Shown here piece by piece: positions 21,658 to 21,669 of a DNA stretch of 64,000 nt. The stretch is taken from sequence record PQ249397; one strand, written 5' to 3'. Below the pieces are notes generated by a model, which saw only the letters and a program-made list of their open reading frames with translations, searched no databases and was not told where the DNA came from. A program made the position numbers and the translations under genes. This DNA comes from Escherichia phage Pu-Krd-SF3. Each line of letters begins with the position of its first letter. The stretch's first letter is position 1.

Positions 21658-21669
21658 TATTTATAAATA
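21658..21669. promoter_or_regulatory. Palindromic divergent late promoter TATTTATAAATA serving gene 51 (minus) and gene 26 (plus)
   Basis: Self-complementary 12-mer places TATAAATA on both strands between the divergent gene starts. Confidence 0.55.

Follow-up and report, generated by a model that had tools for sequence, protein, structure and literature searches.

How can the 50 bp that separate two divergent genes of a T4-like phage, gene 51 on one strand and gene 26 on the other, hold a late promoter for each of them? The question is raised by a 12-bp palindrome located in the 51/26 intergenic gap (21641–21690) of Escherichia phage Pu-Krd-SF3, within a stretch of 64,000 nucleotides (PQ249397) that we have analysed as a whole and refer to as the window. 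The window is T4-type phage DNA (Tequatrovirus), colinear with positions 138421–73857 of the T4 genome in reverse orientation at about 96–97% identity; the T4 segE, segD and segC/5.3 segments are absent from it. Around the palindrome, the segment 20600–22700 is 100% identical to Escherichia phage Pu-Krd-SF4, about 500 phage records match at 95% identity or more, and the gap between the two genes is identical base for base to that of T4. Our results make it very probable that the 12-mer consists of two overlapping, back-to-back, gp55-dependent late promoters of the T4 type, one for each of the flanking genes.

In T4, a late promoter consists only of an 8-bp element at −13 to −6 (PMC1524935; PMC2988020); recognition is by gp55 together with gp33, and activation by the gp45 sliding clamp (PMC2988020). 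The genes for gp55, gp33 and gp45 fall outside the 64-kb window, their T4 map positions lying outside 73.8–138.4 kb, and their presence in the phage genome is expected from its 96–100% identity to complete Tequatrovirus genomes. Compared with the late-promoter element (TATAAATA around −13 to −6, and no need of a −35), the gap has an exact octamer on both strands, each a short way ahead of a late gene (virion or assembly) on its own strand, 51 or 26. No match to a sigma-70-type −35/−10 promoter was found within 21641–21690. A first-pass annotation of this DNA had stated that a single palindromic 12-mer gives TATAAATA on both strands, and the sequence check confirmed it: TATTTATAAATA is its own reverse complement over all 12 bp, with the central TATA common to both octamers (Table 1). 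An inspection of all the registers in which TATTTATA and TATAAATA can be superimposed showed that only overlaps of 2 and 4 bp work and, since TATA is self-complementary, the 4-bp overlap is the tightest back-to-back packing of two octamers. Furthermore, the gap can accommodate two promoters and two ribosome binding sites because a late promoter needs no −35 element. Counting from the last base of the octamer to the A of the ATG, we obtained 18 nt for gene 51, the same figure as in the first-pass annotation, and 22 nt for gene 26, where that annotation had miscounted 26 bp (a value that would fit an out-of-frame ATG at 21695, or a count from the wrong octamer). The gene names that it had given, 26 and 51, proved to be correct when the neighbouring genes were named by tblastn with the T4 proteins (Table 1).

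Table 1. Features of the 51/26 and 4/53 intergenic regions and of their surroundings (window coordinates unless a locus is named)
Feature	Position	Strand	Remarks
Gene 51, hub assembly protein, 249 aa, PF12322	20891..21640	-	97% identical to T4 gp51; heads the unit 51-27-28-29-48-54
Gene 26, hub protein/chaperone, 208 aa, PF12322	21691..22317	+	100% identical to T4 gp26; heads the unit 26-25(-uvsY)
Palindrome TATTTATAAATA	21658..21669	.	Union of the two putative late-promoter octamers, 4-bp overlap (TATA)
P51 late promoter octamer TATAAATA	21658..21665	-	18 nt from the gene 51 ATG (21640); annotated in M77695.1 and MT682714.1
P26 late promoter octamer TATAAATA	21662..21669	+	22 nt from the gene 26 ATG (21691); annotated in M77695.1 and MT682714.1
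Predicted P51 transcription start (A)	21652	-	From the −13 to −6 rule (PMC1524935); 12-nt leader AAAGGAGCAUCU
Predicted P26 transcription start (A)	21675	+	From the −13 to −6 rule (PMC1524935); 16-nt leader
Gene 51 Shine-Dalgarno AAGGAG	21646..21651	-	Read from the sequence; part of an 8-nt inverted repeat GCTCCTTT / AAAGGAGC
Gene 26 Shine-Dalgarno AAGGAG	21679..21684	+	Read from the sequence; ribosome binding site annotation in M77695.1
Variant octamer GATAAATA, possible second, weaker gene 26 late promoter	21671..21678	+	Second 'protein 26' TATA_box in M77695.1
Bidirectional terminator-like hairpin	15377..15398	.	At the distal end of the 51-to-54 unit, with gene 54 and alt.-3 on either side
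Gene 4 late promoter octamer	59775..59782	+	27 nt from ATG 59809; identical in T4; layout kept in other genera
Gene 53 late promoter octamer	59790..59797	-	29 nt from ATG 59761; identical in T4; face-to-face with the gene 4 octamer
TATTTATAAATA in the Muldoonvirus 4/53 gap	L055:582-593; L058:7362-7373		IMG/VR copies of Serratia phages Muldoon and PS2

Scarlato et al. 1989 (Virology 171:475) reportedly described overlapping late promoters that direct divergent transcription of this base plate cluster. The overlap can also be read from GenBank record M77695.1, the T4 25/26/uvsY deposit, in which a TATA_box for 'protein 51' (768–774) and another for 'protein 26' (772–779) together make up exactly the 12-mer, and both octamers are annotated as promoters in MT682714.1 (phage Lutter). 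M77695.1 is the record of Gruidl et al. 1991, Virology 184:359, a reference confirmed in PMC2988022; it was the only one that a literature search for papers mapping the P26 and P51 5΄ ends returned, and PMC6024815 contains nothing on these promoters. The overlapping P26/P51 late promoters are, in short, already known, and were annotated in T4 decades ago. With respect to the T4 pair (T4 about 116450–116461), where the same 50-bp sequence carries the same two annotated octamers, the window shows nothing of substance that is different, as befits a close relative of T4.

What would these two promoters transcribe? The two genes that flank the palindrome head divergent units (Table 1), and the far end of the longer one is occupied by a hairpin with a perfect, GC-rich 9-bp stem, ATGGGGACC GAAA GGTCCCCAT, and T-rich tails on both strands. 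It lies between the convergent genes alt.-3 and 54, and is likely to be a bidirectional terminator that closes the 51-to-54 late unit. On the − strand between 15400 and 21640 there is no further exact octamer besides that of P51, and no single-mismatch variant was found within 100 nt of the starts of genes 27, 28, 29, 48 or 54, so that the − strand copy within the palindrome is the only credible late promoter for the whole 6.3-kb unit 51-27-28-29-48-54. The + strand copy is the sole consensus site ahead of genes 26 and 25, gene 25 having no exact octamer elsewhere and no variant within 100 nt of its start. We propose that the hub and tube-initiator unit 51-27-28-29-48-54 is under the control of the − strand copy and 26-25 under that of the + strand copy, and that both units, being of the late class, would be co-regulated in time.

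An alternative is that only one of the octamers is functional, the match on the other strand being a by-product of AT-rich symmetry and the other gene being transcribed from elsewhere. In its favour, PMC2988020 warns that not all of the 50 listed T4 late-promoter sites have been shown to be active in vivo, and M77695.1 lists, in addition to the consensus octamer, two variant boxes for gene 26, which correspond to 21671–21678 (GATAAATA) and 21694–21701 (TATGAATA) of the window. However, these extra boxes are not conserved outside Tequatrovirus, the only genus among those sampled in which GATAAATA is present, and the 51-to-54 unit offers no alternative consensus octamer or well-placed variant. 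Moreover, genes 51 and 26 head their units and face a gene on the opposite strand, so a transcript coming from upstream would be antisense for several kb, and on the + strand it would also have to cross the terminator-like hairpin described above.

The comparison among genera bears more directly on this alternative. It was made with phages spread down the gp26 tblastn ranking, selected without regard to their intergenic DNA and reduced to one representative per genus. The exact 12-mer is kept in 10 of the 12 genera having the divergent 51/26 layout (Tequatro-, Mosig-, Karam-, Moon-, Jiaoda-, Marfa-, Dhaka-, Gapriver-, Muldoon- and Lazarusvirus), among which gp26 identity falls to 41% and the gap varies in length from 45 to 67 bp. 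When the ten sequences were aligned on the 12-mer, all 12 of its columns were invariant, as against one of 28 in the flanks, whose mean pairwise identity is 0.39; the conserved block therefore coincides with the two octamers taken together and does not extend past them. A single functional octamer would constrain only eight positions, and the invariance of all 12 thus argues that the octamers of both strands are under selection. We consider it very unlikely that only one of them works.

We give equally little credit to the proposal that the palindrome is kept mainly as the site of a dimeric protein, for example T4 DsbA, or as a cruciform, its promoter activity being secondary. The perfect palindrome would suit such a role, as would the imperfect inverted repeat in which it is embedded (24-nt arms, 71% complementary), and DsbA has been reported at AT-rich sites, sites overlapping two late promoters being mentioned in PMC2988020. 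Yet the outer inverted repeat amounts to no more than the pair of Shine-Dalgarno sequences, the conserved block does not extend beyond the octamers, the affinity of DsbA is micromolar, and its gene is non-essential (PMC2988020). Distant relatives, furthermore, alter the length of the palindrome and keep late-promoter-like cores on both strands. Thus, Aeromonas phage 25 (L016:963-972) carries a 10-bp palindrome, TATTTAAATA, between genes 51 and 26, and in Krischvirus KFS-EC (L015:954-966) a 1-nt insertion gives TATTTATAAAATA, with an exact octamer left only on the gene 51 side; both keep the principle in a different register. Just downstream of TATTTATAAAATA, the Krischvirus sequence contains ACTAAATA, a possible displaced + strand promoter. 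In Aeh1, where gene 26 has no divergent partner, the octamer stays and the palindrome does not: TATAAATA is found 23 nt upstream of the gene, preceded by TTTC. Finally, the divergent genes 4 and 53, treated below, achieve the same with two separate, non-palindromic octamers.

The breadth of the 26/51 arrangement was further explored with a pattern scan of IMG/VR for the 12-mer flanked by CTCC and GGAG, which returned 51 loci, about 30 of them 26/51 pairs with gp26 identity down to 27%; this sample was selected for the motif and was used only to show breadth. In some of the contigs, the 12-mer with its mirrored CTCC/GGAG flanks also lies between other divergent gene pairs, different from 26/51 (loci L027, L034, L057, L038/L052/L056/L065, L026/L048 and L037/L047 among them), and two of the proteins encoded beside it weakly resemble T4 gp20 (L045) and gp19 (L067). 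We considered that the flanking genes in the non-T4 contigs could be very distant gp26/gp51 homologs, and discarded it, as none of 38 flanking proteins matched an HMM built from 26/51 homologs. The scan suggests that the back-to-back design of late promoters is reused more widely in uncultivated viral contigs.

That the 12-mer could be a chance palindrome in AT-rich intergenic DNA is hardly credible: shuffles of the window that preserve its composition yield the exact 12-mer 0.04 times per window on average, and at least once in 4 of 100 (p about 0.04), but chance would not place it between two divergent late genes at canonical spacing, hold it invariant across ten genera in which the flanks have diverged, or make it recur between 26/51 homologs of such low protein identity in viral contigs. 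Composition by itself argues only weakly for the 12-mer, and it is position and conservation that argue strongly for it. The octamer as a class is clearly enriched, with 21 TATAAATA sites in the window versus 9.2 expected, a number that none of the 100 shuffles reached. Thirteen of these 21 are intergenic and lie 15–33 nt upstream of a same-strand gene start (genes alt, 51, 26, uvsY.-2, uvsW, 24, 22, 20, 19, 18, 9, 4 and 53), and the spacings of P51 and P26 fall within this range. Two extra TATAAATA octamers on the − strand, at 36453–36460 and 36514–36521, adjoin a segment of about 640 bp between genes 19 and 18 (36549–37191) that has no T4 counterpart.

The claim of back-to-back late promoters made in the first-pass annotation is thus supported by the spacing of the octamers, by the lack of an alternative octamer in the units they head, by the invariance of the 12-mer in 10 genera and by two prior annotations. 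It is from annotation, conservation and context that the promoter activity of both octamers draws its support.

How could two overlapping late promoters be used? By the −13 to −6 rule, transcription is predicted to start at two A residues 23 bp apart (Table 1), one on either side of the palindrome, so the two transcripts would not overlap, and each predicted leader carries an AAGGAG. The predicted P51 start precedes its Shine-Dalgarno sequence by only one or two bases, which is unusually short, and the true start may differ from the prediction by a few bases. The gp45 clamp is found on DNA in two distinguishable orientations, and its position is the upstream end of the promoter complex (PMC2988020). 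Since gp45 is orientation-specific and sits at the upstream end of the complex, and since the octamers share 4 bp, P26 and P51 would each need a clamp of opposite orientation, and would be used alternately. A complex assembled on one promoter would cover the other, and on a given DNA molecule each should shut out the other. The first-pass annotation had described the arrangement as an economical means of co-activating divergent late genes. This holds in that both units belong to the same temporal class, but joint firing on one molecule would be prevented by the 4 shared bp and the opposite clamps: the 12-mer would be an either/or bidirectional promoter, and not a jointly activated one.

A bolder reading can be built on the same clamp. 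Whichever strand bears the nick or primer end determines how gp45 is oriented, and the T4 origin oriF (uvsY) lies close by, at a distance of about 1.1 kb (near 22798 of the window). The palindrome could then be a direction switch that is read via clamp orientation, the ratio of 51- to 26-operon transcripts would report the local direction of replication, and genes 26 and 51 would be kept head-to-head for this reason, beyond plain compactness. We regard this direction switch as improbable.

The mirrored symmetry of the gap is also apparent at the RNA level. An RNA that reads through 21632–21699, in either direction, can form a hairpin in which GCUCCUUU pairs with AAAGGAGC and a ribosome binding site is buried (−14.3 and −13.0 kcal/mol, with z of −2.8 and −3.3), and RNAs that begin at the late starts predicted above form no structure. 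A similar scheme is known in T4, in which only the late transcripts are translatable. We did not retain the hairpin as an established regulatory element, and treat it as an automatic by-product of two mirrored Shine-Dalgarno sites.

Why should a palindrome be found at this place? Both flanking proteins match the PF12322 family (T4_baseplate) over its full length (profile positions 1–219) and well above its curated cut-off of 24.5 bits: gp26 with 215.6 bits (residues 1–206, E 9e-64) and gp51 with 187.2 bits (residues 1–201, E 4e-55). Compared directly by BLASTP, they are colinear from the N-terminus and 20% identical over 161 aa (E 1e-5). These matches identify gp26 and gp51 as paralogs; a review of tail morphogenesis (PMC3004832) presents both as hub assembly chaperones and leaves their homology unmentioned. 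Since the flanking genes are paralogs, the palindrome, which is no more than 2 bp off the point midway between the start codons of the two genes, stands at the axis of a head-to-head paralog pair. An inverted duplication may plausibly have left behind the mirrored set of promoter, ribosome binding site and start codon; the 12-mer would then have been frozen, since a mutation in the TATA that they share would harm both promoters. Alternatively, the two promoters could have converged on the palindrome after the duplication.

The first-pass annotation had pointed to a second divergent pair in the window, at 59775–59797 between genes 4 and 53, in which the two octamers are offset, and we find them as described, separated by a 7-bp gap. 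As in the 26/51 pair, two consensus octamers serve two divergent late genes, here in a 47-bp gap. In contrast with the back-to-back arrangement of 26/51, the 4/53 octamers are face-to-face and 7–8 bp apart, so that each lies beyond the other, in the other's leader, and the starts predicted on the + strand (about 59788) and the − strand (about 59784) cross by about 5 nt. Five genera (Tequatro-, Mosig-, Winkler-, Jiaoda- and Dhakavirus) conserve the layout TATAAATA-N7/8-TATTTATA, and variants of it occur in Gelderland- and Krischvirus. Serratia phages PS2 and Muldoon, both of the genus Muldoonvirus, have TATTTATAAATA between genes 4 and 53 instead, with spacings of 28 nt. Because the palindrome there takes the place of the octamer pair, the face-to-face and back-to-back layouts are interchangeable.

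A parallel exists in bacteria, where bidirectional promoters arise from symmetry of the −10 element, with preferred start separations of 18, 10 and 23 bp (Warman et al. 2021; PMC12825309), and where one polymerase binding event excludes the other (PMC12825309). Similarly, the 12-mer is a symmetric −10-type element read on opposite strands, with divergent starts predicted on either side, and the P26/P51 start separation, predicted from the −13 to −6 rule only, is 23 bp. The bacterial promoters depend on sigma-70 and are often incidental, whereas the 12-mer would depend on the sigma-like phage protein gp55, on gp33 and on the gp45 clamp, with no −35 being required; it also differs in that both of its outputs are essential operons, in its perfect symmetry and in being under strong purifying selection. 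By analogy, then, the 12-mer would work like the class of bidirectional promoters based on −10 symmetry, but it is not a sigma-70 member of it.

As a discovery, the finding is of little significance, the P26/P51 overlap being already annotated in GenBank and described in classical work on T4. It is a textbook case of a −35-less promoter with a half-palindromic core that is packed to its theoretical limit, and the comparative results add modestly to it: a 12-mer frozen in at least 10 genera, its position at the axis of a paralog pair, and face-to-face and back-to-back layouts that, as the 4/53 pair shows, are interchangeable. It also provides a phage example, independent of sigma-70, of the bidirectional promoters that are now recognised as common in bacteria.
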